Shown here in pieces: positions 8,703 through 62,341 of a stretch of 64,000 nucleotides of DNA (positions are counted from its first letter, which is position 1; each line of letters starts with the position of its first letter). Made by a program: the position numbers and the translations under genes. Origin of the DNA: Candidatus Aphodosoma sp. (lineage in GTDB: Bacteria > Bacteroidota > Bacteroidia > Bacteroidales > Paludibacteraceae); NCBI GenBank assembly GCA_045658305.1, contig JAZOUT010000087.1, forward strand, positions 1,046 to 65,045, in the 5' to 3' direction. The notes below the pieces were generated by a model. That model made no database searches. It saw nothing but the letters and a program-made list of their open reading frames with translations, and was not told where the DNA came from.

Positions 8703-8788
8703 TTAGCTCTAACGTTTTATATCGAACTGACATTAATTTACCTTAAATTTTCTCAAACGTTTATCATAGATGATTATACAGATTGTTT

Positions 8789-8876
8789 TATAATATATTT
8801 ATAGTATGTTTATAGTATATTTATCCTATATTTATAATATATTTATAATATATTTATCATATGTTGTAGTATAAGA
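8789..8876 (+). repeat. 11-bp tandem array A (7 units plus 1 degenerate)
   Basis: tataatatatt tatagtatgtt tatagtatatt tatcctatatt tataatatatt tataatatatt tatcatatgtt gtagtataaga, with exact 11-nt phasing read from the sequence. Confidence 0.9.
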
Positions 8877-15000: not shown

Positions 15001-18000
15001 TTCACAACTATTTGTAGTTACATTTTCTGTATACACCTCTGTTGGAGACAAACAAGTAGGTATTTCAACAACTTCTAAATCATCGATAAAGAACTCAGTG
15101 CCATTACCTACAACAAATGCAATATGTTTAGCATCCGCAAATTCAGCGAAATCAGGTTTAGCCAAATCAGAAAGGTATGCAACAAACTCACTCCATTCAT
15201 AACTTTTACGCACAAAGACATCCGCAACAGATTCAAATGTTTCCAATGGATTTGTAATATCTTTCACAACACCTACTGAAATATGAGCATTATCTTTAGA
15301 GGCATGCACATATCCTTTCACAAGATAATTAGCCAATGACGAAACATTAAATTCAGGCAATATTGTCATTGATTCATACATCTTATACGAAACTTTACCA
15401 CTATATGCAACATAATTTGATGGTTCAGATTTACTTGTATATTCATTTGTCAAATTAGAAGACCAACAAACAATATTATTCAACTCTGGATCATCAAAAT
15501 TATCATAATACGGCAATTCAAAAGTAGAACAAATTGTACGAAATGTCTTCACATGACTCCATTCGCTTGGTTCAGCACACAATGAACGGAAAGAATAGTA
15601 ATACTCTTTGTTTGTTTGTAAGCCATTGATTTCATAGTGTTTTTCACGTATTGTATCGTGAGCAATATCTGCCACACCATACTCAGGGTCGAAATTAACA
15701 CTTGCCACCTTAACTTCCCAAACATCAGCAATAGAATGGAAGTCTATCTCTGCTGATTTTGCTGTAATTTTAGATTCTTTAATTTGAACAGGAGGAGCAC
15801 ATTCTATTTCTTTAACACTGAAATTATCAATAACAGAATTATTTTGCTGAACAGATATACCCCAAGTTATTGTATTTATACCAATATAATATACCCCATC
15901 TTTAGGTGCATTTATCCAACCTTTATACTCGCGCCACTCACTCACAAGTTCTTGTGTTACCATTGTATCTACGAGCATTGACATTTCAGGCTCAACAAAA
16001 TAAGCCAAACTCAAATTCATACCAAAATCACAATCTTGACGAGCCATTACAGACACTTCATAATTGCTATTTGCCTTCAAATAAAATGGACGTAACAACC
16101 ATGTATCATTATTATAAGGCAACGCAGCAAACATACTACCTTCATATGGCGTCATTGTAATTACTCCATCATCATTATATGTTCCTGTTTTTGCCACAAA
16201 TATACCATCAGCAGAAACATTAGCAACTTGTTGATAACAACCAAAAACATATTCGTCGACTGTAAAATTCTCAAATCCTTCAAAAAATGGATTATCAAAA
16301 TCAACAACAATAGGAGCACATTGAGTAGAGAATTGAAGAACAAACTCACTCCATGGTCCGTATGTACCATCAGCACATTTACGACGAGCATATAATTCAT
16401 AATCAGTTTGAGGAGTCAAGTCAGTAATAGTAACACTTGCACCAGTTGCATCAAAAATATTTCCTGTATTAGGATTAAATCCAGGCAAACCAACACTAAC
16501 TTGCCATACATCAACTTCAGAAGTCAAGTTTGTTACACGAGCTACATTTGTTTTAATAGAGTCAATCTTGACATCCATATAATCACACGATGTTTTCTCT
16601 CGTATCACAACATTATCAATATACATCGCCATTGTGCCTTGGTGTACACCTTCGAAGATTACGTACTTATTGCCTGACGCTGTAATAGTAAATTCATATT
16701 TATACCAACCTTCTTTTTCTACTTTTGGAGCAAACTGACTACCAACATTGATATATCCTAATTTAGTAGCATTATCAACATTAGGTTGATCATTAACCAA
16801 AATATTCAAACCCTCGTTATCAACAGCAGAAGTATTATCCATATCTTTAGGCTCAGGCATACGATAAAACCAGAACGAAACCACATATTCTTTGCCAGAA
16901 TTAAAAGTAAACTGAGGTGACACTAACGCCGACTTAATACCCGAACTTGATGTCTGCAATTTAGCAGATGCATCTCCAGACTTAATCAATTCTGGATTCC
17001 AAAATTTATCATCATTGCGCACCCATGCTTCATCTTTATAGTCTGTAGCAAATTGATCATTAGGATTTCCATATGCCTGACTTTGATATTGTCTCCAACA
17101 ATGAGGAGGGAAACGCTGTTCATCAAATGTTTGAATATATGGTAATGCTGTTATAGCATCACAATCAGTTTCAAATTTTTGAGCAAACTCAACAGGCTCA
17201 CCCATATCATCAGCACCACAATTTGAAATAACACGCGCATTAATTGTATATTGAGCACCTGGCGATAAGCTTGTAATATCTAATTCTGGTGTACCTTCTA
17301 CAACCAAAGTATTAGATATTTCATGTTGCCCACTTACCAAAGTGTATCTTACATTCCATTTAGATTCATTCAAACCTTTAGTCCATGATAATTTAACAGA
17401 ATTTGTAGTTATATTACTCAATTTAATATCGGACACCTTGCGACACAAAGGAGCTAATTTAACCTCTACATCATCAATAAACGTACCATACGAACCACCA
17501 CTCACACCTTCAAAAATAACATATACATTTCCAGCCAAAGGAATATTATATTCATATTTGTACCAACCCTCTTGTTCCTCTACTGGATACATTGTATAGA
17601 TACTATTAATAAAACCTAATTTTGTTCCACCAATAGTATCAGGACGATTGTTAACCCAAATATTCAAACCTTCATGTTCTTTTGCAGCATAAGTATAAAC
17701 AGCATCACGATACACCCACAATGACAAATCGTAATGAGTTGGAATATCAACGTATATAGGCTGAGTAACCAAGAGCGTATGAATTCCAGCTCTTGAATCA
17801 CGCAACTTAGCCGCATACTTTCCTTCGTACACTTCATCATAACTTGAATTTGATTTACTTAAAGTCCAAGCTTCATCACCATAATCAATTCCAGATGACA
17901 AACCGCCAGTAGAAGTAGGTTTTATTGTTTGACGCGAGAACCAACATTCAGGAGGAAATATTCCAGCTTCAAAACCTTCGAAGAAAATAGTCTCAGCTCT

Positions 18001-19718: not shown

Positions 19719-22700
19719 TTAGACTTTTTTCACTGATACTTTTACGATATACTCCTCAAAATCGAGTTCTGTAGCCTCTGCAATTGCATCAACCAACTTG
19801 ATTTCGTTAGCAAGCACTTGACCACCAATATAGTCAGTGTAATTAACTACTGCATCATTGATAGCATCGAGGCGTTCGATTTCAACCACAATCTTATCGG
19901 TGATTTCGTAACCATTCGACTTACGGATGTTTTGGATACGGTTAACCAATTCACGAGCAATACCCTCTTGACGAAGTTCTTCTGTTACAGTAACATCAAG
20001 TGCAATAGTAAGTGTACCTTCGTTAGCAACCAACCAACCTGGCATATCTTCAGTAGCGATTTCTACATCGGCAAGTTCTACTACAACTGCGCCCGAAGCT
20101 AATGGCAATTCAACCGAGCCATTACGTTCGATTGTAGAGATGTCAGCTTGATCCCAAGCAGAGATAACAGCAGCAATCTCTTTCATTTGTTTACCATATT
20201 TTTTACCTAACGTTTTGAAGTTAGGTTTAATACGTTTCACAAGCGAAATAGACGAATCATCAGCACCTACAATTTCAAGTTCCTTCACATTCACCTCAGT
20301 CTTAATCAGTTCAGCGATATATGACAACTGCTCGCGTGTCTTATCATCTGCAGCAGGGATAACTGCTTTTTGAAGTGGTTGACGCACTTTTTTCTCTGCT
20401 TTACGACGCAATGCAAGAATCATAGACGATGATGCCTGAGCAAGTTGCATACACTCTTCGAGGTTTTTGTCGATGAGCGAATCGTCGCATACAGGGAATT
20501 TAGCCAAGTGAACTGATTCTGCAGTCTCTTTGCCTGTAGCGGCATTCAAGTCAAGATACAATTGGTCAGCAAAGAATGGTGCGATAGGAGCCATAAGTTT
20601 TGCTACAGTAGCAAGACAAGTATAAAGAGTTTGATAAGCAGAGATTTTATCTGTATTGTACTCGCCACCCCAATAGCGTTTGCGGTTGAGACGTACATAC
20701 CAGTTCGAAAGGTTTTCACCTACGAAGTCTTGAATTGCACGCCCTGCACGAGTTGGCTCGTAGTTTTCGAAGTGCTCTGTGCACTCTTTAACCAACGTAT
20801 TCAAAAGAGAAAGAATCCAACGGTCGATTTCAGGACGTTCTGCTACTGGCACATCAGCCTCTTTGTATTCGAAGCCATCCACGTTAGCGTAGAGAGCGAA
20901 GAATGAGTAAGTATTGTAGAGTGTGCCAAAGAATTTACGGCGCACCTCTTCTACACCATCAACGTCGAACTTGAGGTTATCCCAAGGCGATGCGTTTGTC
21001 ATCATATACCAACGCAATGGGTCAGAACCGTATTTCTCGATTGTAGAGAATGGGTCAACAGCATTGCCAAGGCGTTTCGACATCTTGTTACCATTCTTAT
21101 CAAGCACAAGACCATTAGAGATAACATTCTTGAATGCTACTGAATTAAATACCATTGTGCCGATTGCATGAAGAGTAAAGAACCAACCACGAGTTTGATC
21201 GACGCCCTCAGAGATGAAGTCGGCTGGGTATACTGATTTAGAGTCGAATGCTTCTTTATTTTCAAATGGGTAGTGGATTTGAGCGTATGGCATAGCACCA
21301 GAGTCGAACCAAACGTCAATCAAGTCGAGTTCGCGTTTCATTGGTTTGCCCGATTCGCTGACAAGGATAATACCATCAACGTATGGACGGTGAAGGTCGA
21401 TATTTTTAGGGTCCCAGTTCTCTTTGCTCATGTCGCCGAGACGGAAGTTTTTGTATGGGTTTTCAGTCATGAAACCTGCAGCAATAGATTTCTCGATTTC
21501 GCCCATCAACTCTTCAACAGAACCGATACATTTCTCTTCTGAACCATCTTCAGTGCGCCAGATTGGGAGCGGAGTACCCCAATAACGAGAACGTGATAAG
21601 TTCCAATCTTGCAAGTTTTCAAGCCATTTACCGAAACGACCAGTACCAGTAGATTGTGGTTTCCAGTTGATAGTTTCATTAAGAGCAATCATCTCGTCAC
21701 GTACGGCAGTTGTGCGGATAAACCAAGAGTCAAGTGGATAATAAAGCACAGGTTTGTCAGTACGCCAGCAATGAGGATAGTTGTGGACATGTTTTTCGAT
21801 GCGGAATACTAAATTTTGTTGTTTCAACATCATACAAATAGCCACATCAAGAGTTTCATCCTGGTCAGTGAGAGCTGGGTCGTAAGCATTTTTCACGAAA
21901 CGACCAGCAAATTCATTATATTTTTCTACATCAACTTGTACTTTAACAAAATCCGCATCAAGATCTTCGAGCAAGAAGAATTTACCTGTCATATCCACCA
22001 TCGGACGAGTTTCGCCCTTAGCAGTAGTCATAGTCAAGCCAGGAACACCTGCTTTTTTAGCCACGAATGCGTCATCCGCACCAAATGTTGGCGCAATGTG
22101 TACAATACCAGTACCATCTTCAGTTGTTACATAGTCACCTTGAATTACTCGGAATGCACCTTCTCCTGGATTTACCCAAGGAATAAGTTGTTCGTATTCA
22201 GAATCAACCAAATCAACACCCATACACTCGCCCACTACGCGATAAGGCACAAGTTTGTCGCCTGGTTTATAGTCTTCCATAGCTACTTCAGCAGCTTTAG
22301 GATTGAACAACGAAGCAAACAAAGGTTTAGCCACGATATATGTAGCAGGGATGCCAGTATATGGATTAAAGCTTTCTACTGCGAGATATTCAATTTTAGG
22401 ACCAACGCAAAGGGCAGTATTTGAAGGCAAAGTCCAAGGAGTAGTAGTCCAAGCCAAGAAATATACATCACCTTTGAGGTTGTTGAAACCATTTACTTTT
22501 TTAGCTTTGAATTGAGCAGTACAAGTTGTATCTTTTACATCACGATAGCAACCTGGTTGGTTCAATTCGTGAGTAGAAAGACCTGTACCAGCAGCTGGCG
22601 AATATGGTTGGATAGTATAACCTTTGTACAACAAGCCTTTGTTATACAACTGTTTGAGCAACCACCAAAGTGTTTCAATATATTTATTATCGTAAGTGAT

Positions 22701-25379: not shown

Positions 25380-25456
25380 GCAGTATGATTTATAGTATAT
25401 TTATCCTATATTTATGGTATATTTATCCTATATTTATAGTATATTTATGGTATGTT
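25380..25456 (+). repeat. 11-bp tandem array B (6 units plus 1 degenerate)
   Basis: (gcagtatgatt) tatagtatatt tatcctatatt tatggtatatt tatcctatatt tatagtatatt tatggtatgtt. Confidence 0.9.
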
Positions 25457-25562: not shown

Positions 25563-26045
25563 GTGAAGAAGTATGTTTTTCAAATAGTTAGTCTTTGTTT
25601 AGCAATGTTCATTGCGTATATTGGTGGTGGATTGAATATCTATCACTATTGTTGCGATGCTTGCGAAAAACATGGACACGATATATTTCAGACTATATCG
25701 TGCGAAGAGGTGCATGCAGAGCATCATTGCACAGAGGATGATTGCCACCATGAGCATCATAATCACACTCGTATTATAGAAAATAGAGATGATTTGTGCA
25801 CTCATTTGATGGCAAATTCGGCTCACTGCGATGTGCATCATGTGGAAGCACCTTATTTTTCACAATCTAATCCTTTGAAAGTGAACTTTGTGTCACCATT
25901 GATTGCGATACACCCTATATCAATGCACAATGCACAATGCATAATGCACAATATTGAGTGCAAGATACAAAGTGAGGCTATTCCTTTAGTCCAAATTCTC
26001 ACAGGACGAGCCATAATTGTGCGAAAATCTGCGTATTTGATTTAG
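25563..26045 (+). CDS. Small N-terminally membrane-anchored His/Cys-rich protein (160 aa), putative metal-binding. Reminiscent of the Bacteroidota HYC_CC_PP-type small proteins found next to TonB-dependent receptors (from memory, unverified).
   Basis: GTG start, one TM helix (VFQIVSLCLAMFIAYIGGG), then IYHYCCDACEKHGHD...HAEHHCTEDDCHHEHHNH. First gene of a same-strand cluster with a TBDR and an HMA protein. Start codon uncertain. Confidence 0.7.
   Translation: MKKYVFQIVSLCLAMFIAYIGGGLNIYHYCCDACEKHGHDIFQTISCEEVHAEHHCTEDDCHHEHHNHTRIIENRDDLCTHLMANSAHCDVHHVEAPYFSQSNPLKVNFVSPLIAIHPISMHNAQCIMHNIECKIQSEAIPLVQILTGRAIIVRKSAYLI
25921..25952 (+). repeat. Heptamer array (AATGCAC x4.5) in frame inside the His/Cys-rich protein CDS
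   Basis: c aatgcac aatgcac aatgcat aatgcac aat, translated as SMHNAQCIMHN. Confidence 0.9.
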
Positions 26046-26149: not shown

Positions 26150-28540
26150 ATGAAAAAAATAATAATGATTGTATTGTGCGTGATGCATTGTGCATTGTGC
26201 ATTAACTTGAAAGCTCAAGAGTCGACTGGAGGCACACTTTCGGGTAGCGTGATTGATGAGAACGGCGAACCAGTAATTGGAGCTGAGATATTTTGGTTAA
26301 ACTCGACTATCGGTGCGGTTACGGATATTGATGGCAATTTTACTATTCCAATGACTGTGGATAGCCACCACTTGATTTTTAATTATTTGTCGTACAAAGC
26401 TGATACAGTAGATATTACTAAGGCTTCGATGCCTCTTGTTGTGCAGATGAGCGAAGATACAAAAGAGTTGCAAGAAGTAACAGTTGCAGCACGTGGAGCA
26501 AGTACGATTGCGAGCCGCGTGAGCGCATTGCAAACTACTAAAATCACTGGTGCAGAGTTGTGTAAAGCGGCTTGTTGCAACTTGTCGGAGTCGTTCGAAA
26601 CTAATGCCTCAGTGGACGTAGCGTATGCTGATGCTGCTACTGGCGCAAAAACAATTAAATTACTCGGTTTGTCAGGCACATACGTTCAGTTGTTGACCGA
26701 AAACACTCCAGGAGTGCGTGGTTTGGCTCAAAACTATGGTATGGAATATATCCCTGGTGCTTGGATGGAGAGCATCCAGGTATCGAAAGGTACTTCGTCT
26801 GTTATAAATGGTTATGAGGCCACTACAGGTCAAATCAATGTTGAATACTTGAAACCTCAAACCCAAGACCCTATTGCGTTGAATGGTATGGTGAGCACAT
26901 CGCTTCGCGCTGAGTTGAACGCTACTGGCGGTTGGGATATCAACGAAAAATGGAGCACTGGCGTGTTGGCTCACTACAAAAATGAGAGTATGGAACACGA
27001 CACAAATGGCGACGGATTTATGGATTTGCCAAAAGGTCAACAAGCCAATTTGTTGAATCGTTGGTATATGAAAGATGGTGCATATACAGGTCAATACCTC
27101 GTGCGAGGCTTGTATGACGAGCGCAATGGCGGTCAGACAATGAAATATATTGACGAAAATGGCATTGCTGACCCATATAAAATTGGCATTCGCACATGGC
27201 GCATGGATGCGTTTATGAAACAGGGCTATGTGTTTGATGAAGCAAAAGGTACAAGTATCGGGATTATTGCAAGTGGTTCGTACCACAATCAACACAACGT
27301 ATATGGTCATCGCGTGTATGATGGCGTACAAGGCAACTTCTATTTGAATGCTATGTTCCAAACATATTTTGATGAAACTGACAAACACAAAATCACTGCG
27401 GGTTTGAGCCTCAATTATGATAACTATAAAGAAGGGATGATATCAGACAAGGCGGAGTTTATACTATCATACGATAATAATCCGATGGGAGATTCACCAG
27501 ATGCACCTGCTGGATTACCATTAGGTGATTACACTAAACTATTAGATATGACTCGCGATGAATGGACTCCGGGTGTATTTGCAGAATACTCATTGAAAGT
27601 AGATGAAAAATTGTCGCTTTTGGCAGGTGTTCGTGGCGATTATAGCACACAGTATGGATTCTTTGTAACACCACGTTTCAACGTGCGCTACTCGCCATGG
27701 GAATGGTGGAACTTGCGCGGTTCGGTGGGTATGGGCTATCGCTCGCCTAACTTGTTGAGCGACCACGCTTCAGTGTTACCTTCGTCGAGAACAATAGCAA
27801 TTGAAAGCGATGTATTAAAACAAGAACGTGCAGTAAATGCAGGTGCAAGCACTACGTTCTATATTCCTATTGCGGGTCGCGAATTGCAAATTACGGCAGA
27901 CTACTACTACACTCATTTCTTGGAATGTATGGTTGTAGATATGGACTCTGACCCATATACTGTTATATTCTCTAACCTCACAGAGGAGGGCGTAGAAGGA
28001 GGCAAAAAACCTCGCTCGTATGCAGGCAACTTCCAAGTAGAGGCATCGATGGAGGTGTTGAAAGGTTGGACTATGACACTCGCCTACCGTATGTCGGACG
28101 TAAAAAGTACAATCAATGGTGAATTACGCGAAAAACCTCTTACAAACCGCTATAAAGCACTCATCACAACTTCGTATATGACACCACTAAAACACTGGCA
28201 ATTCGACGTTACAGCACAATTTAATGGTGGTGGTCGTATGCCTGATAATTTTTATAAAGGCAATGAATCACTTCGTCCATCATGGACTATCGACCGTGGC
28301 AATGGTCAATATGATTTTCCTTGGCATGCGCAGTTGATGGCTCAAGTAACTCGTTATTTCCGCACATGGAGTATCTATGTCGGAGGCGAGAATATCACTA
28401 ACTTTACACAAGATACACCTATTATTGGCGCCGGTGACCCATACGGACAAAACTTTGATGCATCAATGGCTTGGGGACCTATCCATGGATGGAAAGTGTA
28501 TGCAGGCTTCCGTTGGGCTTTGAACCGTAAGGAAAAATAA
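26150..28540 (+). CDS. TonB-dependent receptor with N-terminal carboxypeptidase-regulatory-like domain (796 aa)
   Basis: Signal peptide; GSVIDENGEPVIGAEIFW...TDIDGNFTI (CarbopepD_reg-like); plug-like ESFETNASVDVAYADAATGAKTIKLLGL; long barrel ending in an aromatic-rich strand (YAGFRWAL). Confidence 0.88.
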   Translation: MKKIIMIVLCVMHCALCINLKAQESTGGTLSGSVIDENGEPVIGAEIFWLNSTIGAVTDIDGNFTIPMTVDSHHLIFNYLSYKADTVDITKASMPLVVQMSEDTKELQEVTVAARGASTIASRVSALQTTKITGAELCKAACCNLSESFETNASVDVAYADAATGAKTIKLLGLSGTYVQLLTENTPGVRGLAQNYGMEYIPGAWMESIQVSKGTSSVINGYEATTGQINVEYLKPQTQDPIALNGMVSTSLRAELNATGGWDINEKWSTGVLAHYKNESMEHDTNGDGFMDLPKGQQANLLNRWYMKDGAYTGQYLVRGLYDERNGGQTMKYIDENGIADPYKIGIRTWRMDAFMKQGYVFDEAKGTSIGIIASGSYHNQHNVYGHRVYDGVQGNFYLNAMFQTYFDETDKHKITAGLSLNYDNYKEGMISDKAEFILSYDNNPMGDSPDAPAGLPLGDYTKLLDMTRDEWTPGVFAEYSLKVDEKLSLLAGVRGDYSTQYGFFVTPRFNVRYSPWEWWNLRGSVGMGYRSPNLLSDHASVLPSSRTIAIESDVLKQERAVNAGASTTFYIPIAGRELQITADYYYTHFLECMVVDMDSDPYTVIFSNLTEEGVEGGKKPRSYAGNFQVEASMEVLKGWTMTLAYRMSDVKSTINGELREKPLTNRYKALITTSYMTPLKHWQFDVTAQFNGGGRMPDNFYKGNESLRPSWTIDRGNGQYDFPWHAQLMAQVTRYFRTWSIYVGGENITNFTQDTPIIGAGDPYGQNFDASMAWGPIHGWKVYAGFRWALNRKEK
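26165..26202 (+). repeat. Heptamer array (ATTGTGC family, opposite orientation) inside the TBDR signal-peptide coding region
   Basis: gattgt attgtgc gtgatgc attgtgc attgtgc att, translated as IVLCVMHCALCIN. Confidence 0.8.
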
Positions 28541-32530: not shown

Positions 32531-32598
32531 ACAACATACAATAAATATACTATAAATATAGGATAAATATATCATAAATATACTATAAACATACCATA
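32531..32598 (-). repeat. 11-bp tandem array C (6 units, minus orientation)
   Basis: The rc reads tatggtatgtt tatagtatatt tatgatatatt tatcctatatt tatagtatatt tattgtatgtt gt. Confidence 0.9.
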
Positions 32599-32662
32599 AC
32601 CCTATCCTCTCCCTCCCCTCACCCACCCCAATCACAAAAATCCACACACACCAACACACAAC

Positions 32663-42231: not shown

Positions 42232-42299
42232 ACAACATACTATAAACATACTATAAATATAGAATAAATATACTATAAATATAGGATAAACATACTATA
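42232..42299 (-). repeat. 11-bp tandem array D (6 units, minus orientation)
   Basis: The rc reads tatagtatgtt tatcctatatt tatagtatatt tattctatatt tatagtatgtt tatagtatgtt gt. Confidence 0.9.
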
Positions 42300-43358: not shown

Positions 43359-43380
43359 ATTAAATCAATAGTTTTCATAT
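43341..43380 (-). repeat. Perfect 20-bp tandem duplication spanning the lplA start codon and the mtnN stop codon
   Basis: taaatcaatagttttcatat occurs twice (43341-60 and 43361-80). Confidence 0.95.
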
Positions 43381-44088
43381 CATTTCAATAAGTTGTCGCA
43401 ACACCGCAAACGTCATCTTTGGTGCTTCTGCAAAAAAATCAAGATATTGCGCTGTATTATCCGTCTCCATACCTGGAGTATCGCTCACAATACGAAGACT
43501 CATAAATGGCACATTCTTAACATAACACACCTGTGCAATAGCAGCACTCTCCATATCAACAGCCTTACCATCAGGAAAATTACGTTTAATACCCCGCAAA
43601 ATAACCAAATCCGAAATAAATTGGTCGCCAGTACAAATCAAACCAAAAACGAGTCGCGAATTAAGATTCAATTGTGCATTGTGCATTATGCATTGTACAT
43701 TGTTCATTACCTCAAGCAAATGCTCATTAGCAGAAAATTTCAACGGAAAACCTTGCACTTGCCCCCACTCGCCTTCGCCACACCACACATCATGATAACA
43801 AGTTTCAGTACCGACAACAATATCCCCTTGATGCATACCTTCGCCAATGCCACCAGCTACACCACTATTAATAATGTAGTCAAGATGCATTTCGGCAATC
43901 AACGAAGTGACTTGCATTGCCGCATTCACCTTACCTATACCCGACTTAAGAAGTATAATTTGCTTACCAAAAAGCTCACCCACAAGAGCCTTAGCGCCTC
44001 CAATTTCTCGAGACTCAGCATTCTCCAATATATTGCTCACAAGATTAAACTCGCTTTGCATTGCAACTATAATTGCTATTCGTTTCAT
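43375..44088 (-). CDS. mtnN: 5'-methylthioadenosine/S-adenosylhomocysteine nucleosidase (237 aa from the ATG at 44088)
   Basis: MKRIAIIVAMQSEF, SGIGKVNAA, NSGVAGG, VDMESAAIAQV and LRIVSD match MtnN/Pfs motifs. The track ORF starts at an upstream TTG (44100). Confidence 0.9.
   Translation of the reverse strand: MKRIAIIVAMQSEFNLVSNILENAESREIGGAKALVGELFGKQIILLKSGIGKVNAAMQVTSLIAEMHLDYIINSGVAGGIGEGMHQGDIVVGTETCYHDVWCGEGEWGQVQGFPLKFSANEHLLEVMNNVQCIMHNAQLNLNSRLVFGLICTGDQFISDLVILRGIKRNFPDGKAVDMESAAIAQVCYVKNVPFMSLRIVSDTPGMETDNTAQYLDFFAEAPKMTFAVLRQLIEMI
43674..43720 (+). repeat. Heptamer array (ATTGTGC family, ~6 units) in frame inside mtnN
   Basis: attgtgc attgtgc attatgc attgtac attgttc atta, translated on the minus strand as NNVQCIMHNAQLN. 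Confidence 0.9.
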
Positions 44089-44096
44089 ATATATCC

Positions 44097-44154
44097 TCAA
44101 AAAAGACAGAATAACATAATAACAAAAATTTATGTTTTTATGTTATTTTGTCTT
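44097..44154 (-). terminator. Rho-independent terminator of the decarboxylase gene
   Basis: Long stem aagacagaataacata (44103-18) pairs with tatgttattttgtctt (44139-54), followed on the minus strand by a T-run. Confidence 0.7.
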
Positions 44155-46202: not shown

Positions 46203-46209
46203 CATCAAG

Positions 46210-46281
46210 TACCCCCGTCGAGAATCGAACTCGAATCTACGGTTTAGGAAACCGCTATTCTATCCGTTGAACTACAAGGGC
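46210..46281 (-). tRNA. tRNA-Arg (anticodon CCU)
   Basis: The rc folds by hand as GCCCTTG TA GTTC AACGGATA GAAT A GCGGT TTCCTAA ACCGT AGAT TCGAG TTCGATT CTCGA CGGGGGT A. It has a canonical T-loop GTTCGATTC and the anticodon loop TT-CCT-AA. The acceptor stem has several G-U pairs, including position 1:72, so isotype and ends need tRNAscan-SE confirmation. No encoded CCA. Confidence 0.75.
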
Positions 46282-46287
46282 TTTGTT

Positions 46288-46374
46288 CAATGCACAATGC
46301 ACAATTCACAATGTAAGATGCTCAATTAGCCATTCGGCATCAAATAATTAATTATAAATTGTGCATTGTGAATT
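46288..46374. repeat. Inverted pair of heptamer arrays between yidC and the tRNA
   Basis: Left arm caatgca caatgca caattca caatgta (46288-315). Right arm aattgtg cattgtg aatt (46357-374). At least 13 nt are complementary, with a spacer of about 41 nt. Confidence 0.8.
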
Positions 46375-46377
46375 ATT

Positions 46378-48306
46378 TTAGTGTCTGCCTTTTGAGTTTG
46401 ACTTCATTTGACGTGCTTGTTGCTCACGAAGGGCTTGTTGTTGCGCTTTTTGAGCTTCTTCAAGACGTTGCATGAAACCTGATTTCTTTTGTGGTTTTGT
46501 TTTATTTTTCTCGAGTTGCGCAAGCACTTTTTTGTCATCAACAAAAAGACGGAACAAATATGTTTGAAGTATTGTAATCAAAAGCGATACGAAATAGTAG
46601 TATGAAAGACCTGACGCATAATTATTAAAGATGAACATAAACATCACTGGCATCATATACATCATAGTTTTCATCATACCTGCACCTGGCTGGTCGCCTG
46701 CACCTGTTGTTGCCATATTGATTTTTGTATAGATGATGTTTGTAACTGTCATCAAAAGGCAAAACAAAGAGATGTGGTTACCGAAATATGGTGTGATAAG
46801 TGGAATATACATATCCCAAGAGAGGATAGCATCGTAAGATGAGAGGTCGTCTGCCCAAAGGAATGATTGTCCACGAAGCTCAAATGCTGTTGGGAAGAAG
46901 CTGAACATAGCGAACAAAATAGGCATTTGGAATAACATAGGAAGACAGCCACTCATAGGACTTACGCCTGCTTTTTGATAAAGAGCCATAGTGGCTTGTT
47001 GGCGTTCCATTGCTTTTTCGGCAGGGATGCGAGCATTGATTTCATCGATTTGAGGACGAAGTACACGCATTTTTGCCGACGACATATATGATTTGAATGT
47101 AAATGGAAGTATCACCAATTTGATAATGATAGTCAACAAGAAGATGATAAGACCATAACTACCGATATATTTACCGAGGAAATTGAACACAGGAATGATA
47201 ACACAAGTCGTAATCCAACGGAAAAGCGACCAACCCATAGGGATGATGTGTTGGAGACGGAGTTTATCTTCGCCATCAATGTGCTTATCGTAAGATTTCA
47301 ACACACGATATTGGTTAGGACCATAATATGTATGAAATTTAGTTGAACGGGCACCATTAGGGTCGAACGCAACGCTTGCTTCCATCGAGTGTTTTTTGAT
47401 AAACTCAGAACGCTCAGGCATAATTTCAGTTTCAACAGCTGTAGCAGTGAAAGCATCATCGGCAATCATAATAGTGCTAAAGAAGTGGTCTTTGAATGCC
47501 ACCCAACGCACTTTACCTGCAAGTTTTTCTGAATCATTGCGAAGTTCAGAAAGACGTTCCATATCGTCAGAAACAAACTTATAATTAAGTGTTGCATAAC
47601 GAGACTCAAATTTGCGACCCTTCTCGTTTTGACGAATGAGCGATTGCCATTGCATATCGAGCGACGATGTATTTGGCGAGAGATATTGAGCCATATTGTG
47701 AGCTTTAATCTCCATCGAAGTCATAAAATCGTCATTAGGAATTGTATAGATGAAGTCAATATGAGCATCTGCATCAACAGCAAGACGCATAGTTACGATT
47801 TGAGCTTCATCAGTTTTGCTAACTATTGGTTCAAAATAGAGGCTCTTAGTGCTGATAATACGATTGTCGCTTGTGAAGAGAGTAAAACCAAGAGAAGCAT
47901 CACCATCAGCAAAAAGCATCAAAGGAAGCGAGTCATAACGAGTGTAATTCTTCATTTCGGCAGCACAAACGCGACCACCTTTGTTAGAAAAAGTAAGACG
48001 AATTTTCTCATTCTCTACAGCAAATTGCTCTTCTACACCAACGCCTGCAGCCGCAAAATAGCCATAAGTTTTTTCAAGACGAGCTGAATCAAGAGTCATT
48101 TCGCCAATAGCAGCAAGAGAATCCGCAACTGCTTGCTCTCGTTCAAGTTCTAACTGAGCAAGATATGCCGCCTCATTAGCAGCAGCAATAGAGTCACGCA
48201 CATGTTGACGACGCGCCAACTCTTCTTTACTTGGTTGGTTCAACCAACTGAAACCGAATATTACGGCCATTATTAGGACTAAGCCTATGACGGTGTTTTT
48301 ATCCAT
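46378..48306 (-). CDS. yidC: Membrane protein insertase YidC (long Bacteroidetes form, 642 aa)
   Basis: N-terminal TM, large periplasmic domain, conserved core GCLPMLFQMPILFAMF...SLLITILQ, and a basic C-terminal tail. Confidence 0.93.
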   Translation of the reverse strand: MDKNTVIGLVLIMAVIFGFSWLNQPSKEELARRQHVRDSIAAANEAAYLAQLELEREQAVADSLAAIGEMTLDSARLEKTYGYFAAAGVGVEEQFAVENEKIRLTFSNKGGRVCAAEMKNYTRYDSLPLMLFADGDASLGFTLFTSDNRIISTKSLYFEPIVSKTDEAQIVTMRLAVDADAHIDFIYTIPNDDFMTSMEIKAHNMAQYLSPNTSSLDMQWQSLIRQNEKGRKFESRYATLNYKFVSDDMERLSELRNDSEKLAGKVRWVAFKDHFFSTIMIADDAFTATAVETEIMPERSEFIKKHSMEASVAFDPNGARSTKFHTYYGPNQYRVLKSYDKHIDGEDKLRLQHIIPMGWSLFRWITTCVIIPVFNFLGKYIGSYGLIIFLLTIIIKLVILPFTFKSYMSSAKMRVLRPQIDEINARIPAEKAMERQQATMALYQKAGVSPMSGCLPMLFQMPILFAMFSFFPTAFELRGQSFLWADDLSSYDAILSWDMYIPLITPYFGNHISLFCLLMTVTNIIYTKINMATTGAGDQPGAGMMKTMMYMMPVMFMFIFNNYASGLSYYYFVSLLITILQTYLFRLFVDDKKVLAQLEKNKTKPQKKSGFMQRLEEAQKAQQQALREQQARQMKSNSKGRH

Positions 48307-50380: not shown

Positions 50381-50451
50381 TATAACATACTATAAATATA
50401 CTATAAACATACTATAAATATAGGATAAACATATGATAAATATACTATAAA
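50381..50451 (-). repeat. 11-bp tandem array E (6 units, minus orientation)
   Basis: The rc reads atagtatatt tatcatatgtt tatcctatatt tatagtatgtt tatagtatatt tatagtatgtt at. Confidence 0.9.
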
Positions 50452-53340: not shown

Positions 53341-53559
53341 ACCATTAAGCGAATAATTCTACATTATGAACCGAAGGTCATGAGCCTTTAGGCGAATAAT
53401 TGTGAATTGTGAACCGAAGGTCATGAGCCGTTAGGCAAATAATTATGCATTATACATTGTGAACCGAAGGTCATGACCGTTAAGGCGAATAATTGTGAAT
53501 TGTGCATTGTGCATTATGCATTGTGCATTGTGAATTGTGAATTGTGAATTGTGCATTAA
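53341..53559. repeat. Composite satellite downstream of polA: three ~44-52-bp units (GCGAATAATT-heptamers-GAACCGAAGGTCATGAGCC) followed by a 9.5-unit heptamer array
   Basis: gaaccgaaggtcatga(g)cc occurs at 53368, 53412 and 53461. The pure array 53491-53557 reads aattgtg aattgtg cattgtg cattatg cattgtg cattgtg aattgtg aattgtg aattgtg catt and ends 2 nt before the polA stop codon. Confidence 0.9.
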
Positions 53560-56541
53560 CTAATGCGCCTCAAGCCAATTCGACCCCACACCAATATCCA
53601 CTCGCAATGGCACCGACAATTTCACGGCTCCTTCCATCTCTTCGCGCACCAATGCCTTCACTCTTTCCACCTCATCAAGCGGAACGTTAAAGTTCAATTC
53701 GTCGTGCACTTGCAATAGCATCTCTGCCTTCAATCCCTCGCGCTTTAATCTATCGGCTATCTTCACCATTGCTATCTTTATAATATCTGCCGCCGTGCCT
53801 TGTATTGGCGCATTCACAGCATTGCGCTCGGCATATCCTCTCACATTTGCGTTCCGTGAATTTATATCTGGCAAATATCTCCTGCGGTGCAACATCGTCT
53901 CTACATACCCATCTCTACGCGCATTCTCTATCGTTGTGTCAATATAATCTTTCACACCTGGGAAGCTCATAAAGTATCCATCTATCAACTCCTTAGCCTC
54001 AGCACGCGATATACCCAATCTCTCCGACAACCCAAAAATAGAGATACCATATATAATGCCAAAATTCGCAGTCTTAGCCTTCCTACGCATATCGCTCGTC
54101 ACCTCCTCAATCGGCACTTTATAGATATTTGCTGCCGTTGCCGCGTGAATGTCATGGTCGGCATTGAACGCCGCCAACATATTCTCATCTTGCGACAAAT
54201 GCGCCATCAATCTTAGCTCTACTTGCGAGTAGTCGGCCGACATAAACACGTGCCCTTCAGATGCTATGAATGCCTTGCGTATCTCTTTGCCTTGCTCATC
54301 GCGAATAGGTATATTCTGCAAGTTTGGGTTCGACGACGACAATCGTCCCGTAGCCGTAACGGTTTGGTTAAACGATGTATGCACTCTGCCTGTCCGCCCA
54401 TTTATCAATTTTGGCAATGCATCTATATAGGTGCTGAGCAACTTCTTCACTCCCCTATATTCCAATATCTCGCCCACCACTGGGTGTTTCGCTCTCAATC
54501 CCTCCAATGTCTCCTCGTCCGTAACATATTGTCCACTTTTTGTTTTCTTAGCTTTATCGCTTATTTTCAACACATCAAACAACAATTCTCCCACCTGTTT
54601 AGGCGAACTAATATTTAGGTTCGAGCCCGATATTTCACGTATATGACGCTCTATGCGCTGCATTTCGGCTGTCATCACGCCCGACGATTGCGCCAATGCA
54701 AAGTCGTCTATTATCACCCCCGTGCGCTCCATCTCTGCCAACACTCTCACGAGTGGCATCTCCACTTCATAAAACAATCTCGCCAAACTTCCATTGTCCC
54801 CACTATTGTCCCCCTGTCTTAGGGGGACGAGCGTAGCGGAGGGGGTCAAACCCACAGGGGGCAAACTCACGGGGGTCAAACCCTCGGGGGTCAAACTCAA
54901 TTGTGGCTCCAACACACCCCTCAATCGCAACGTAATATCAGCATCCTCTGCCGCATAATTGGTTATCTTATCCAACGGCACATCGCGCATCGACCCCTGA
55001 TTCTTTCCCTTCGCGCCTATCAACTCATCGATATGTATTGTCTTATATTTCAACAATATCTCTGCCAAGTAGTCCATACTATGACGCAACTCTGGTTGCA
55101 ACAAATAGTGCGCTATCATCGTGTCAAATAGTTGTCCTTTCAACTCAACACCATAATTTGCCAGCACCATCAAGTCGTATTTAATGTTATGCCCCGTCTT
55201 CTCAATCGCCTCATTCTCAAATACTGCGCGAAACAAATCTACCGTCTTTTGAGCCTCTGCCCTATCCTCACTCACCGGCACATAATATGCTGTAGGCAAT
55301 TGTGAGTTCTCCGACAAGTCCGACAGGTCTGACCCGTCCAACAAATCCGAATTGTGCATTGTGCATTGTACATTGTGCATTGCAAAAGAAAATCCCACCA
55401 ACTCCGCATCCAACACATCCAACGACGTAGTCTCTGTGTCGAACGCAAACATCTTCACCCCCATCAACATCTCCACCAACTCCCTCTGCTTCTCCTCCGT
55501 ATCCACACACACATAATTCACCTTCTCAACATCAAAACTCGCAAACTTCACCTCCTCATTCTCAATTCTCAATTCTCCATTCTCAATTCTCAATTCCTCA
55601 TTCCTAATTCCTAACTCCTCATTATCAAAAAGCGACCCCATCCCCGAATTATCCTTCACTCCTAACTCCTCATTCCTAATTCCTAATTTCTTAATGTGGC
55701 TCCTAAACTCCAACTCCTCATAGATTTCCACCAACGCCTTCACATCTGGCTCCTCTATCACAAATCGCGCCTCATCAAACTCTACAGGCGCATCGGTCTT
55801 TATCGTAGCCAAGAATTTCGAGAACCTAATCTGCTCCACATTTGCCTCCACCTTCGCCCTTAGCGCACCTTTTATTTCATCCGTATGCGACAACATATTG
55901 TCTATACCGCCAAATTGTTGCAACAACTTCACCGCTGTCTTCTCTCCCACGCCTGGGCAACCAGGTATGTTGTCCGACGCATCACCCATCAATCCCAACA
56001 AATCAATCACTTGCGCAGTCGATTCCAACCCCCATTTCTCCAACACCTCTGCCACGCCGAGCGTATCAAATCCCGACCCGCCAAATCGTGGTTTATAGAT
56101 TTTAATATTCTCTGTCACCAACTGCCCATAATCCTTATCAGGCGTCATCATCAACACCTCAAAACCCTCCTTCTCAGCCAACCCTGCCAACGTACCAATC
56201 ACATCATCTGCCTCATAGCCCGGCACCTCAATCACCGGTATTCTATATGCCTCCACTATCTGCTTGATGATAGGCACCGCCTTACGAATATCCTCTGGCG
56301 TAGCCTCACGATTTGCCTTATACTCCTCGTATGCCTCATGCCTGAATGTCGGACCCGACGGGTCGAACACCACTGCCAAATGCGAAGGCTTCTCCCGTGT
56401 CAACACATCCTCCAGCGTATTCACAAAACCAAATATCGCCGACGTATTCATCCCCTTCGAATTAATCCTCGGCATACGCATAAATGCATAATAAGCCCTA
56501 TAAATCAACGCATAAGCATCAAGCAAAAACAATCTTTTCAT
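53560..56541 (-). CDS. polA: DNA polymerase I (993 aa) carrying three in-frame short-repeat insertions
   Basis: 5'-nuclease N-terminus (LFLLDAYALIYRAYYA), 3'-5' exo (FAFDTETTSLD), polymerase motifs (DYSQVELR, RRKAKTANFGIIYG, QVHDEL). Low-complexity inserts are detailed under findings. Confidence 0.96.
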   Translation of the reverse strand: MKRLFLLDAYALIYRAYYAFMRMPRINSKGMNTSAIFGFVNTLEDVLTREKPSHLAVVFDPSGPTFRHEAYEEYKANREATPEDIRKAVPIIKQIVEAYRIPVIEVPGYEADDVIGTLAGLAEKEGFEVLMMTPDKDYGQLVTENIKIYKPRFGGSGFDTLGVAEVLEKWGLESTAQVIDLLGLMGDASDNIPGCPGVGEKTAVKLLQQFGGIDNMLSHTDEIKGALRAKVEANVEQIRFSKFLATIKTDAPVEFDEARFVIEEPDVKALVEIYEELEFRSHIKKLGIRNEELGVKDNSGMGSLFDNEELGIRNEELRIENGELRIENEEVKFASFDVEKVNYVCVDTEEKQRELVEMLMGVKMFAFDTETTSLDVLDAELVGFSFAMHNVQCTMHNSDLLDGSDLSDLSENSQLPTAYYVPVSEDRAEAQKTVDLFRAVFENEAIEKTGHNIKYDLMVLANYGVELKGQLFDTMIAHYLLQPELRHSMDYLAEILLKYKTIHIDELIGAKGKNQGSMRDVPLDKITNYAAEDADITLRLRGVLEPQLSLTPEGLTPVSLPPVGLTPSATLVPLRQGDNSGDNGSLARLFYEVEMPLVRVLAEMERTGVIIDDFALAQSSGVMTAEMQRIERHIREISGSNLNISSPKQVGELLFDVLKISDKAKKTKSGQYVTDEETLEGLRAKHPVVGEILEYRGVKKLLSTYIDALPKLINGRTGRVHTSFNQTVTATGRLSSSNPNLQNIPIRDEQGKEIRKAFIASEGHVFMSADYSQVELRLMAHLSQDENMLAAFNADHDIHAATAANIYKVPIEEVTSDMRRKAKTANFGIIYGISIFGLSERLGISRAEAKELIDGYFMSFPGVKDYIDTTIENARRDGYVETMLHRRRYLPDINSRNANVRGYAERNAVNAPIQGTAADIIKIAMVKIADRLKREGLKAEMLLQVHDELNFNVPLDEVERVKALVREEMEGAVKLSVPLRVDIGVGSNWLEAH
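54791..54898 (-). repeat. In-frame repeat insertion 3 in polA: 2x12-bp units, a 7-bp-stem palindrome and 4x15-bp units
   Basis: attgtcccc recurs at a 12-nt spacing. Palindrome gtccccc-tgtctta-gggggac. Four 15-mers, (g)gggtcaaac-type, at 54839-54898. Translated as LTPEGLTPVSLPPVGLTPSATLVPLRQGDNSGDNGS. Confidence 0.85.
55311..55383 (-). repeat. In-frame repeat insertion 2 in polA: 5x9-bp (CCGACAAGT family) abutting 4.7x7-bp (ATTGTGC family)
   Basis: ccgacaagt ccgacaggt ctgacccgt ccaacaaat ccgaattgt, then attgtgc attgtgc attgtac attgtgc attgc. Translated as AMHNVQCTMHNSDLLDGSDLSDLSE. Confidence 0.9.
55554..55688 (-). repeat. In-frame repeat insertion 1 in polA: 10-unit and 4-unit heptamer arrays (AATTGAG/AATTAGG/AATGAGG on the coding strand)
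   Basis: Plus strand 55554-55623: cctcatt ctcaatt ctcaatt ctccatt ctcaatt ctcaatt cctcatt cctaatt cctaact cctcatt. 55661-55688: cctaact cctcatt cctaatt cctaatt. Translated as NEELGIRNEELRIENGELRIENEE and LGIRNEELG. Confidence 0.9.
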
Positions 56542-56776: not shown

Positions 56777-56859
56777 CAATCATGAGCGAAGCGAATAACT
56801 CTTAATTAACACAACGCCGCATGGCAATTTTATCGCCAAAGGCACAAAGACCTTCGGTT

Positions 56860-56887
56860 CTTAATTCTTAATTGTTAATTATTAATT
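56860..56887. repeat. Heptamer array (CTTAATT x4), preceded by gaccttcggttc, the rc of the GAACCGAAGGTC module seen at 53368/53412/53461
   Basis: cttaatt cttaatt gttaatt attaatt. Confidence 0.8.
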
Positions 56888-57462: not shown

Positions 57463-57497
57463 CACTAATAACTAGTAACTAGTAACTAATCACTAAA
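57463..57497 (+). repeat. Heptamer array (5 units) in the hydrogenase 5' UTR, ending 4 nt before the ATG
   Basis: cactaat aactagt aactagt aactaat cactaaa. Confidence 0.75.
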
Positions 57498-61673: not shown

Positions 61674-61772
61674 TATAATTATTATAGTCCAAATTATTTA
61701 TACACTTCCAACTCGATAGACTACAAACCCACCAATAAGTTTAATCCAAAATTAAAAAAATTATAAAAATTC

Positions 61773-62195
61773 CTAATTCCTCATTGCAATCGCTTCCACT
61801 GCCAATCTATACGACTCCAATCCAAACCCCGAAATCACACCCACACAAGCTTTCGACAACAATGACACCCTACGCTCCTCTTCACGAGCATAGATGTTGG
61901 TGATATGCACCTCTACCACAGGCGTTGTGATTGCCGCCACTGCATCAGCTATAGCCACCGAAGTATGAGTATAGCCACCAGCATTCAACACCACTCCATC
62001 TGCCGAAAATCCCACTTCGTGCAATTTATTGATTATCTCACCCTCTACATTCGACTGATAATACTCTATCTCGCAATCGGCATATTGCGCTTTCAACACC
62101 TCTAAATAATCCTCAAATCGCGTAACCCCATACTTTTCTGGTTCACGAACACCCAACAAATTCAAGTTAGGACCATTGATTATCACTATTTTCAT
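61773..62195 (-). CDS. aroQ: Type II 3-dehydroquinate dehydratase
   Basis: MKIVIINGPNLNLLGVREPEKYG...NAGGYTHTSVAI.DA...EVHI.N is the canonical AroQ (140 aa). Confidence 0.95.
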   Translation of the reverse strand: MKIVIINGPNLNLLGVREPEKYGVTRFEDYLEVLKAQYADCEIEYYQSNVEGEIINKLHEVGFSADGVVLNAGGYTHTSVAIADAVAAITTPVVEVHITNIYAREEERRVSLLSKACVGVISGFGLESYRLAVEAIAMRN

Positions 62196-62221: not shown

Positions 62222-62275
62222 CAAAAAAAAACACAACTACCCAAAGGCATTCTTTCTACATTTTCAAGATTGCTT

Positions 62276-62330
62276 TATAGTATGTTTATAGTATATTTAT
62301 CATATATTTATAGTATGTTATAGTATACTT
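62276..62330 (+). repeat. 11-bp tandem array F (4 units plus 1 degenerate)
   Basis: tatagtatgtt tatagtatatt tatcatatatt tatagtatgtt atagtatactt. Confidence 0.9.
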
Positions 62331-62341
62331 AAGGTAATACT

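Follow-up and report, generated by a model that had tools for sequence, protein, structure and literature searches.

Stop-bearing heptanucleotide repeats kept open by codon phase in the DNA polymerase I linker of a Paludibacteraceae genome

The polA gene and its linker arrays

We analyzed a stretch of 64,000 nucleotides from Candidatus Aphodosoma sp. (Bacteroidales, Paludibacteraceae; assembly GCA_045658305.1, contig JAZOUT010000087.1, positions 1,046 to 65,045 of the forward strand), referred to here as the window, with a focus on the tandem heptamers inside its polA gene. All coordinates are those of the window. By computational re-translation, polA (53560-56541, minus strand) encodes a DNA polymerase I (PolA) of 993 aa, in which Pfam finds a 5'-nuclease domain (aa 3-267), a 3'-5' exonuclease (aa 343-548) and a polymerase (aa 616-991). 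With these limits, the linker between the 5'-nuclease and the exonuclease spans aa 268-342, and two heptamer arrays, numbered 1 and 2 below, both fall inside it. Residue 6 of the E. coli Klenow fragment aligns with the NYVC motif (aa 342-345), 10 aa past array 1.

Array 1 (55623 down to 55554, minus strand) consists of ten heptamers of the AATTGAG/AATTAGG family and encodes NEELGIRNEELRIENGELRIENE(E). With the codon phase in brackets, phase 0 being that of a unit that starts in frame, its first five units are AATGAGG(0) AGTTAGG(1) AATTAGG(2) AATGAGG(0) AATTGAG(1), and the other five are AATTGAG(2) AATGGAG(0) AATTGAG(1) AATTGAG(2) AATGAGG(0). The units form superunits of 21 bp, the phase-0 member of which is either AATGAGG or AATGGAG. 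Array 2 (55688 down to 55661, minus strand) reads AATTAGG(1) AATTAGG(2) AATGAGG(0) AGTTAGG(1) and encodes (K)LGIRNEELG(VK); its first unit overlaps conserved K-L codons, and its last is followed by a degenerate unit, AGTGAAG(2), that reaches 55654. The resulting peptide at aa 285-330 is KLGIRNEELGVKDNSGMGSLFDNEELGIRNEELRIENGELRIENEEVKF. Tandem Repeats Finder (TRF) reports a period of 7 on the arrays with 5.6 copies and 93% matches, as well as a period of 21 with 3.6 copies. By TRF and by the register of the units, these are head-to-tail tandem copies of 7 nt, that is, a heptanucleotide simple-sequence repeat (SSR).

Between the two arrays lies a conserved island of 30 nt that encodes DNSGMGSLFD (55624-55653, minus strand; aa 298-306). 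The island is present in all close relatives, takes the form Q(G/A/S)SLFD in distant ones, and is the sole constrained part of the linker. We take it to resemble the beta-clamp-binding motif QL[SD]LF; if it is one, this would account for the survival of the island between two arrays that turn over.

Two candidate features were examined and rejected. A plus-strand open reading frame (ORF) at 55354-55614, over the arrays, was unsupported; it is open simply because the array has no stops when read as its reverse complement. The segment FASFDVEKV was considered as an inverted copy of the heptamer segment NSQLSTFNSQLS found in relatives; compared by hand, the two were only about 50% identical, and the alignment pairs the segment with the ancestral DFESYDTQKANY of the relative L086. 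The idea was dropped, which places the end of array 1 at about 55554. A megablast search of plasmids with the polA locus returned no match. Rfam reported a single tRNA in the window, and no known RNA overlapping the heptamer arrays.

Codon phase of the heptamer units

Since 7 leaves a remainder of 1 when divided by 3, each unit starts one codon phase later than the one before, and all three phases recur in turn. Across the two arrays, all five phase-0 units are AATGAGG or AATGGAG, and all nine AATTGAG, AATTAGG and AGTTAGG units are in phases 1 and 2. If the five T-less units were placed at random in the 14 slots, only 1 of 2002 arrangements would have all of them in phase 0. The first-pass annotation of the window, made from its letters, had described this pattern and the encoded peptide, and both were exact on re-translation.

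Tabulating stops by unit and phase explains most of the pattern. AATTGAG, AATTAGG and AGTTAGG are closed in phase 0, where they give TGA or TAG; AATGAGG is closed in phase 1, through the TGA at its positions 3-5; and AATGGAG is open in all three phases. The phase rule is thus largely forced, and two-sided, stop-free units in phase 0 being obligatory in an intact ORF. Because T-carrying units are closed in phase 0 and AATGAGG in phase 1, the AGG-type units must follow the order G, T, and then T or G. For these, phase 2 is free, and the relatives do vary there, with GIR or GMR (I/M) in the peptide and AATGAGG in phase 2 in L081 and L083. What is not trivial is the behaviour of the GAG-type units, which in every allele hold T in phases 1 and 2, even though AATGGAG is open everywhere. 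Over eight polA alleles, which are related and do not represent independent events, 24 of 24 phase-0 units are of the stop-free type, and phases 1 and 2 together have 33 units of the stop type and 9 of the stop-free type.

Heptamer repeats in the window and the lineage

A scan for period 7 found 8 strong arrays in the window. Those of the AATKCAC family are at 53491-53557, 46288, 25921, 43671 and 55351, one of AATTAAG is at 56858-56887, and one of AACTAGT is at 57464. For the GAG and AGG families, double-heptamer patterns were observed at counts reached in 0 of 100 shuffles. Per 100 kb, arrays of period 7 number 12.5 in the window and 43 at the polA loci of close relatives, against 0.6 at 80 other Bacteroidales polA loci (relatives of at most 65% identity, among the matches listed), a density higher by about 20 to 70 times. 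Periods 5, 6, 8 and 10 were near zero everywhere in the same comparison. The heptamer families often consist of AATT plus three bases, in both orientations, and the same or related units recur at many loci, non-coding DNA included. Copy number is polymorphic between strains, with 1-4 superunits in coding arrays and 1-9 units in the non-coding array after the polA stop. These features are those of an SSR family, and they uphold the satellite origin that the first-pass annotation had proposed for the linker arrays.

An AATGCAC/AATTCAC array of 9 units starts 2 nt past the polA stop (53491-53557, minus strand); the base at unit position 4 runs G T T T G G G G T along it, with no 3-unit periodicity. 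Orthologous arrays at this position vary by single units, with 9, 1, 6, 1, 4, 4, 3 and 9 units in the window and its relatives. Upstream of polA, an intergenic array of AATTAAG, AATTAAC and AATTAAT (56858-56887, minus strand) retains T at position 4, and hence TAA, in 4 of 4 units, with no T-less variant. A search with a synthetic peptide also found 57 small, probably spurious, ORFs in public metagenomes that encode N[GEWR]E[LW]R[IM]E repeats. We used these satellite-derived ORFs for statistics on position 4, not as independent insertions in genes; the G-variant makes up 47 of 180 phase-1 units and 61 of 180 phase-2 units, again with no 3-unit periodicity. T or G at position 4 (T4/G4) is therefore a standing polymorphism of the satellite in non-coding arrays, and a G that removes a stop need not have arisen in polA. 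A reading of the change from T to G as a special repair is accordingly not supported.

Two arrays, at 56858-56887 and 61772-61786, had been put forward for comparison as intergenic. The former is intergenic and entirely T4, as described above. The latter is not simply intergenic: AATGAGG AATTAGG (61772-61785, minus strand) lies at the 3' end of the type II dehydroquinase gene, aroQ (61773-62195, minus strand), the TAG stop of which is supplied by the AATTAGG unit in phase 0, giving a protein that ends in ...AIAMRN*. The L088 ortholog of aroQ has another C-terminus, ...CAEKKY*. The heptamer pair seems to have given the gene a new end.

Turnover of the arrays among relatives

We aligned 83 PolA clusters of 77-100% identity (937-1006 aa) from Paludibacteraceae metagenome-assembled genomes (MAGs), and collected the DNA of eleven polA alleles from ENA and NCBI assemblies. 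The NEEL array, at the site of array 1, has homologs in L081, L082, L087 and, at 83% PolA identity, L088 and L089. Its alleles differ by whole superunits of 21 bp (AATGAGG AATTGAG AATTGAG) plus point changes; among the 83 clusters, 30 have one superunit, 8 have two, 7 have three, 1 has four, and 37 have other sequence in its place. This agrees with the expectation of indels in multiples of 21 bp. Two origins had been considered, an expansion of heptamers followed by selection against stops, and an expansion of a 21-bp derivative unit. The 21-bp superunit does expand and contract in frame, but it was not the primary unit: heptamer expansion came first, because each 21-mer is itself three heptamers.

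In the relative L086/P0081 (78%), and in every relative at or below 69% identity, the linker is unrelated, free of repeats and of similar length. From LEFRSH to FDTET, the median distance is 87 aa among close relatives vs 84 aa among distant ones; from HIKKL to NYVC, it is 64 aa in the window vs 66 aa in L086. The linker is therefore no longer than in heptamer-free relatives, and there was no net insertion, contrary to the wording of the first-pass annotation. A finding of the same peptide in orthologs lacking the heptamers would have spoken against a satellite origin; none of these heptamer-free orthologs has it, and the peptide thus tracks the satellite.

At each repeat site, unrelated heptamer families replace each other among close relatives. 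Site 1, that of array 2, has AATTAGG (LGIRNEELG), AATKCAC (NAQFTMHNAQ) or GACACGA (DTRHETRDTR); site 2, that of array 1, has the GAG/AGG array, AATKCAC or TCAACAG (QQSTVNSQQ); and a third site, in a loop of the exonuclease domain, has AATGCAC (MHNVQCTMHN, in the window), GACACGA, CAGATTA or TCAACAG. Between the window and L082, the flanks of site 1 are identical, and 30 nt of the AATTAGG family in the former correspond to exactly 30 nt of GACACGA in the latter. Sites 1 and 2 lie 30 nt apart, and all nine (3x3) combinations of their families occur, with many further combinations when the exonuclease-loop site is added. Both recombination among old allele classes and recurrent overwriting fit this mosaic.

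The third site, in a beta-hairpin loop, holds in the window an AATGCAC array that is stop-free in every phase (55351-55382, minus strand) and translates to MHNVQCTMHN. Relatives of 69% identity or less lack it, as does the E. coli Klenow fragment. Beside the heptamers, and part of the same lineage-specific loop insert, are repeats of 9 bp, TCGGACTTG-like, that encode SDLLDGSDLSDLS (55310-55350, minus strand). A further insert, with repeats of 15 bp, occupies the junction of exonuclease and polymerase (aa 547-585; 54787-54903, minus strand). The window, L081, L084 and L085 have it, and L082, L083, L086 and L090 lack it; it contains a perfect hairpin with a 7-bp stem, GTCCCCCTaagaCAGGGGGAC, of which no second copy was found in the window.

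An AlphaFold2 model (alignment of 42 sequences) has a mean predicted local distance difference test score (pLDDT) of 76. The score falls below 50 at aa 288-339, 391-413 and 551-584, and these three stretches are the three repeat-derived segments, lying between confidently modelled domain elements; strands at 381-388 and 417-422 flank the exonuclease-loop insert, and the insert at aa 547-585 is predicted to be disordered (pLDDT <50). At 288-339 the score is about 24-42, with no helix or other secondary structure predicted. A fourth segment of low confidence, 723-753, is not repeat-derived. The low pLDDT and the unrelated replacement peptides together indicate a spacer that is tolerated rather than used. 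Given the same two observations, nothing points to a function of the satellite, and its description as domesticated is not supported.

Split polA alleles

We searched for short PolA products with the N-terminal 345 aa, and found alleles in which an array has lost a single unit. In L090 (ERZ27298660, a 35-kb contig, with 98.3% DNA identity to L085), three TCAACAG-type units are found vs four in L085, as a gap of 7 bp, and the gene is split into a 341-aa ORF with the 5'-nuclease and an intact 606-aa ORF with the exonuclease and polymerase. In L091 (NCBI GCA_017559505.1, a 26-kb contig), there are two AATTCAC units, one short of the three that would keep the frame, and the gene is split into ORFs of 328 and 623 aa, the second of which is intact. 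These one-unit deletions are in TCAACAG and AATTCAC arrays, in strains other than that of the window. Two other alleles, P0121 and P0253, which have different backgrounds, share a frameshift in the TCAACAG array of the exonuclease loop. The other short PolA fragments with an array at their end result from contig ends or chimeric joins, and we did not count them as frameshift alleles.

The L090 and L091 alleles show that slippage by 7 bases is real in these arrays, and that slips in the linker reproduce the partition into Klenow and small fragments. E. coli is viable with only the 5'-nuclease part of its Pol I. This suggests a route by which a non-triplet repeat may have become established exactly in the linker. 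The natural split alleles also weaken the description of polA, in the first-pass annotation, as an essential gene.

Other repeats in the window

Heptamers of the AATGCAC type are translated in four ORFs of the window. Besides the exonuclease loop of PolA (55351-55382), these are the MTA/SAH nucleosidase gene (43375-44100), where an array at 43671-43708 on the minus strand encodes MNNVQCIMHNAQL, with a net gain of 6 aa relative to PDB 4qez_B; a TonB-dependent receptor gene (26150-28540), where ATTGTGC heptamers at 26173-26203 on the plus strand encode the signal peptide IVLCVMHCALCI; and an ORF of 160 aa, where the heptamers at 25921-25948 encode SMHNAQCIMHN.

An element of about 30-36 nt, GAACCGAAGGTCATGAGCCGTTAGGCGAATAATT, occurs in three copies at 53345-53504, interleaved with AATKCAC heptamers in a composite period of 43 bp. 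A variant of it (about 56840-56858) abuts the AATTAAG array upstream of polA, and it is also found downstream of polA in L084, L087 and L088. Non-coding heptamer arrays seem to be attached to this element. Directly downstream of a tRNA-Arg(CCT) gene (46209-46281, minus strand), two inverted AATKCAC runs about 50 nt apart, CAATGCACAATGCACAATTCACAATG and AATTGTGCATTGTGAATT (46288-46385), could pair as a long hairpin.

Intergenic arrays with a period of 11 bp, approximately TATAAATATAG / TTTATAGTATA in 5-7 copies, were found at 8787-8862, 25382-25453, 32536-32599, 42234-42299, 50387-50451 and 62274-62331, mostly 100-200 bp upstream of gene starts. The feature is conserved in the relative L088, at 15272-15335 and 22137-22212 of its locus. 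The spacing, which matches the helical phase, suggests curved DNA or a promoter-associated element. Finally, in the relatives P0004 and P0065, a block of 10 aa, PKVFEPLAIK, was observed at the protein level within one NGELRIE unit of the linker array.

Discussion

The reading that we favour, with a probability of roughly 80%, is that the arrays are tolerated spacer DNA: a lineage-specific heptamer satellite that evolves by slips of 21 bp under a filter of frame and stop codons. This gut-type Paludibacteraceae lineage carries genome-wide, fast-evolving heptanucleotide SSRs, many with a palindromic AATT core and three variable bases, and in PolA these occupy three structurally permissive segments, two in the protease-sensitive linker and one in a loop of the exonuclease domain. 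T-carrying units in phase 0 and AATGAGG in phase 1 give stops, and readable arrays therefore need a G-variant at every third unit. Such arrays act as a minisatellite of 21 bp (7 codons) that slips in frame between 1 and 4 copies, and slips of a single 7-bp unit also occur and split the gene. The arrays are probably neutral spacer in a linker constrained in length, not in sequence, with G-variants likely drawn from the standing T4/G4 variation and not made in place.

Several points weigh against this reading. The neutrality of the peptide is judged from allele diversity and predicted disorder only, and the array at site 2 is old, being common to L088 and L089 at 83% identity, so that its retention by selection is possible. 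The 3x3 combinations at sites 30 nt apart are more than slippage and descent alone would give, and the founding event, the establishment in frame of a repeat that is not a multiple of 3, is beyond reconstruction. Also, the relatives are metagenome assemblies, in which many short PolA fragments are contig breaks at repeats.

That last point bears on the idea that we are looking at what any ORF would show, or at mis-assembly. Stop-free units in phase 0 are logically required of an intact ORF, and assemblies do break at these repeats. However, the TRF scores, the shuffles, the 1 in 2002 chance of the placement and the same array structure in independent ENA and NCBI assemblies make this explanation hardly credible. 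Another alternative is a functional protein repeat: the acidic 7-residue NEELRIE would be selected as a linker module, with 21 bp as the true unit and the likeness to heptamers secondary. In intact alleles it is indeed the 21-bp superunit that varies, and the array is retained at 83% PolA identity. Yet the 21-mer consists of three near-identical heptamers (AATGAGG AATTGAG AATTGAG matches itself at a lag of 7 in 11 of 14 positions), the same heptamers form non-coding arrays, and in relatives at 86-91% identity the peptide is replaced by the chemically unrelated NAQFTMHNSQL and NVDSSQQSTVNSQ. Nor is the peptide conserved in the heptamer-free orthologs (78% identity or less); its pLDDT is about 24-30, and neither a defined structure nor a partner was found for it. 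We consider this explanation very unlikely. The mosaic of families gives more room to cassette overwriting, in which the sites would be landing pads where arrays are replaced, by ectopic conversion or template switching, from heptamer arrays elsewhere in the genome. The exact exchange of 30 nt between identical flanks in the window and L082, the nine combinations at two neighbouring sites (more with the exonuclease loop), and the recurrence of the same few families at different sites and in other genes all point this way. Against it, no donor arrays or conversion tracts were identified with the 11 DNA alleles, and homologous recombination between strains, acting on old allele classes, could give the same mosaic. 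We hold overwriting to be a serious possibility, though on balance an unlikely one.

The split alleles raise another alternative, that of a contingency locus, where slippage in the linker would reversibly toggle Pol I between a fused state and a split one (a stand-alone 5'-nuclease with a Klenow-like protein, or with no Klenow part), and thereby alter repair capacity or mutation rate. Two independent relatives are one unit short, with 341+606 and 328+623 aa and the rest of the gene intact, two more alleles are frameshifted in the exonuclease-loop array, the break in the linker is at the natural Klenow boundary, and E. coli is generally known to survive on the 5'-nuclease part. But the arrays of the window, despite having a 7-nt unit within an ORF, lack a long uninterrupted tract; they are interrupted every third unit, with at most 2 perfect heptamers in a row, which favours slips of 21 bp. 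Split alleles are rare (about 2-5 vs 83 intact clusters), their second ORF lacks a clear start codon (GTG in L090; in L091 the called start is ATA), and the variants could be ordinary deleterious or neutral ones, or minority haplotypes picked by the assembler. Reversibility and phenotype are putative, and a contingency locus seems to us improbable. Likewise doubtful is an active genetic system that would combine both ideas, with cassettes overwritten at permissive sites of PolA and other proteins, and single-unit slips as a heritable switch for splitting Pol I; if it were real, a gut anaerobe would have a replication or repair gene among its contingency loci. What most merits follow-up is the way in which the cassettes combine, together with the polA alleles split by slippage.

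The linker arrays can be set beside several known systems. In E. coli Pol I, the linker in which our arrays lie is exactly the one cleaved to give the Klenow fragment; there a protease produces the partition in vitro, and in the split alleles of relatives a 7-bp slip in a repeat reproduces it genetically. Rickettsia palindromic elements, reportedly described by Ogata et al. in 2000 as in-frame insertions in conserved genes, are another case of repetitive, "selfish" DNA that essential proteins tolerate in frame where their surface is exposed. Those are mobile elements of 100-150 bp that add residues; the linker arrays, in contrast, are direct repeats of tandem heptamers without net gain in length, and a hairpin is found only in the insert at aa 547-585, which has empty-site alleles.

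Heptanucleotide repeats are, according to Mrazek 2007 as cited in PMC4679880 and PMC4692102, the commonest class of long SSRs (LSSRs) in many bacteria, and under-represented in coding DNA. As these sources present them, 7-nt LSSRs, the cyanobacterial heptamers of the short tandemly repeated repetitive (STRR) class and the GGGAATC repeats of Xanthomonas are, like ours, head-to-tail, lineage-specific, abundant, genome-wide and variable in copy number, and mostly intergenic, near gene ends. The present arrays differ in that several are within conserved genes (three in polA, others in MTA/SAH nucleosidase and a receptor signal peptide), and in that one family is read in its stop-containing orientation through a variant that is periodic by 3 units. 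A close comparison is offered by the TAACTGA repeats of Beggiatoaceae, Cyanobacteria and some Bacteroidetes, including Paludibacter (MacGregor 2015, PMC4679880). Their "forward" arrays terminate ORFs; with a stop in each of the three frames, they are confined to ORF ends. Their "reverse" arrays are translated to 7-residue repeats at protein peripheries (PMC4679880). The termination of aroQ by an AATTAGG unit resembles the forward case. The unit sequences differ, however, and the stop-bearing array of polA is internal to the ORF in sense orientation, by virtue of a stop-free unit at every third position; an internal, open array of this kind is a variant not described in PMC4679880. With the phase-variable loci of Haemophilus and Neisseria (PMC2651432), the polA arrays share a unit in an ORF that is not a multiple of 3 and the frameshift caused by a change of one unit; naturally occurring alleles one unit short were seen in relatives, in arrays of other families. 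The polA arrays differ in that the tracts are short and interrupted, and in that the gene encodes a housekeeping polymerase, not a surface or modification function.

Readability through a stop-removing G in every third copy shows not a new molecular device, but selection filtering a fast-mutating repeat. The polA arrays are a clean natural example of a repeat that carries stops, is not a multiple of 3, and lives in a conserved gene, where selection turns a heptamer repeat into a phase-locked minisatellite of 21 bp. For annotation and quality control of MAGs, truncated or split polA calls in this group are best taken as repeat slippage or contig breaks. For the lineage as a whole, the arrays show an unusually active heptanucleotide process, which reshapes disordered segments of housekeeping proteins, breaks metagenome assemblies and now and then splits polA at the classical Klenow boundary.

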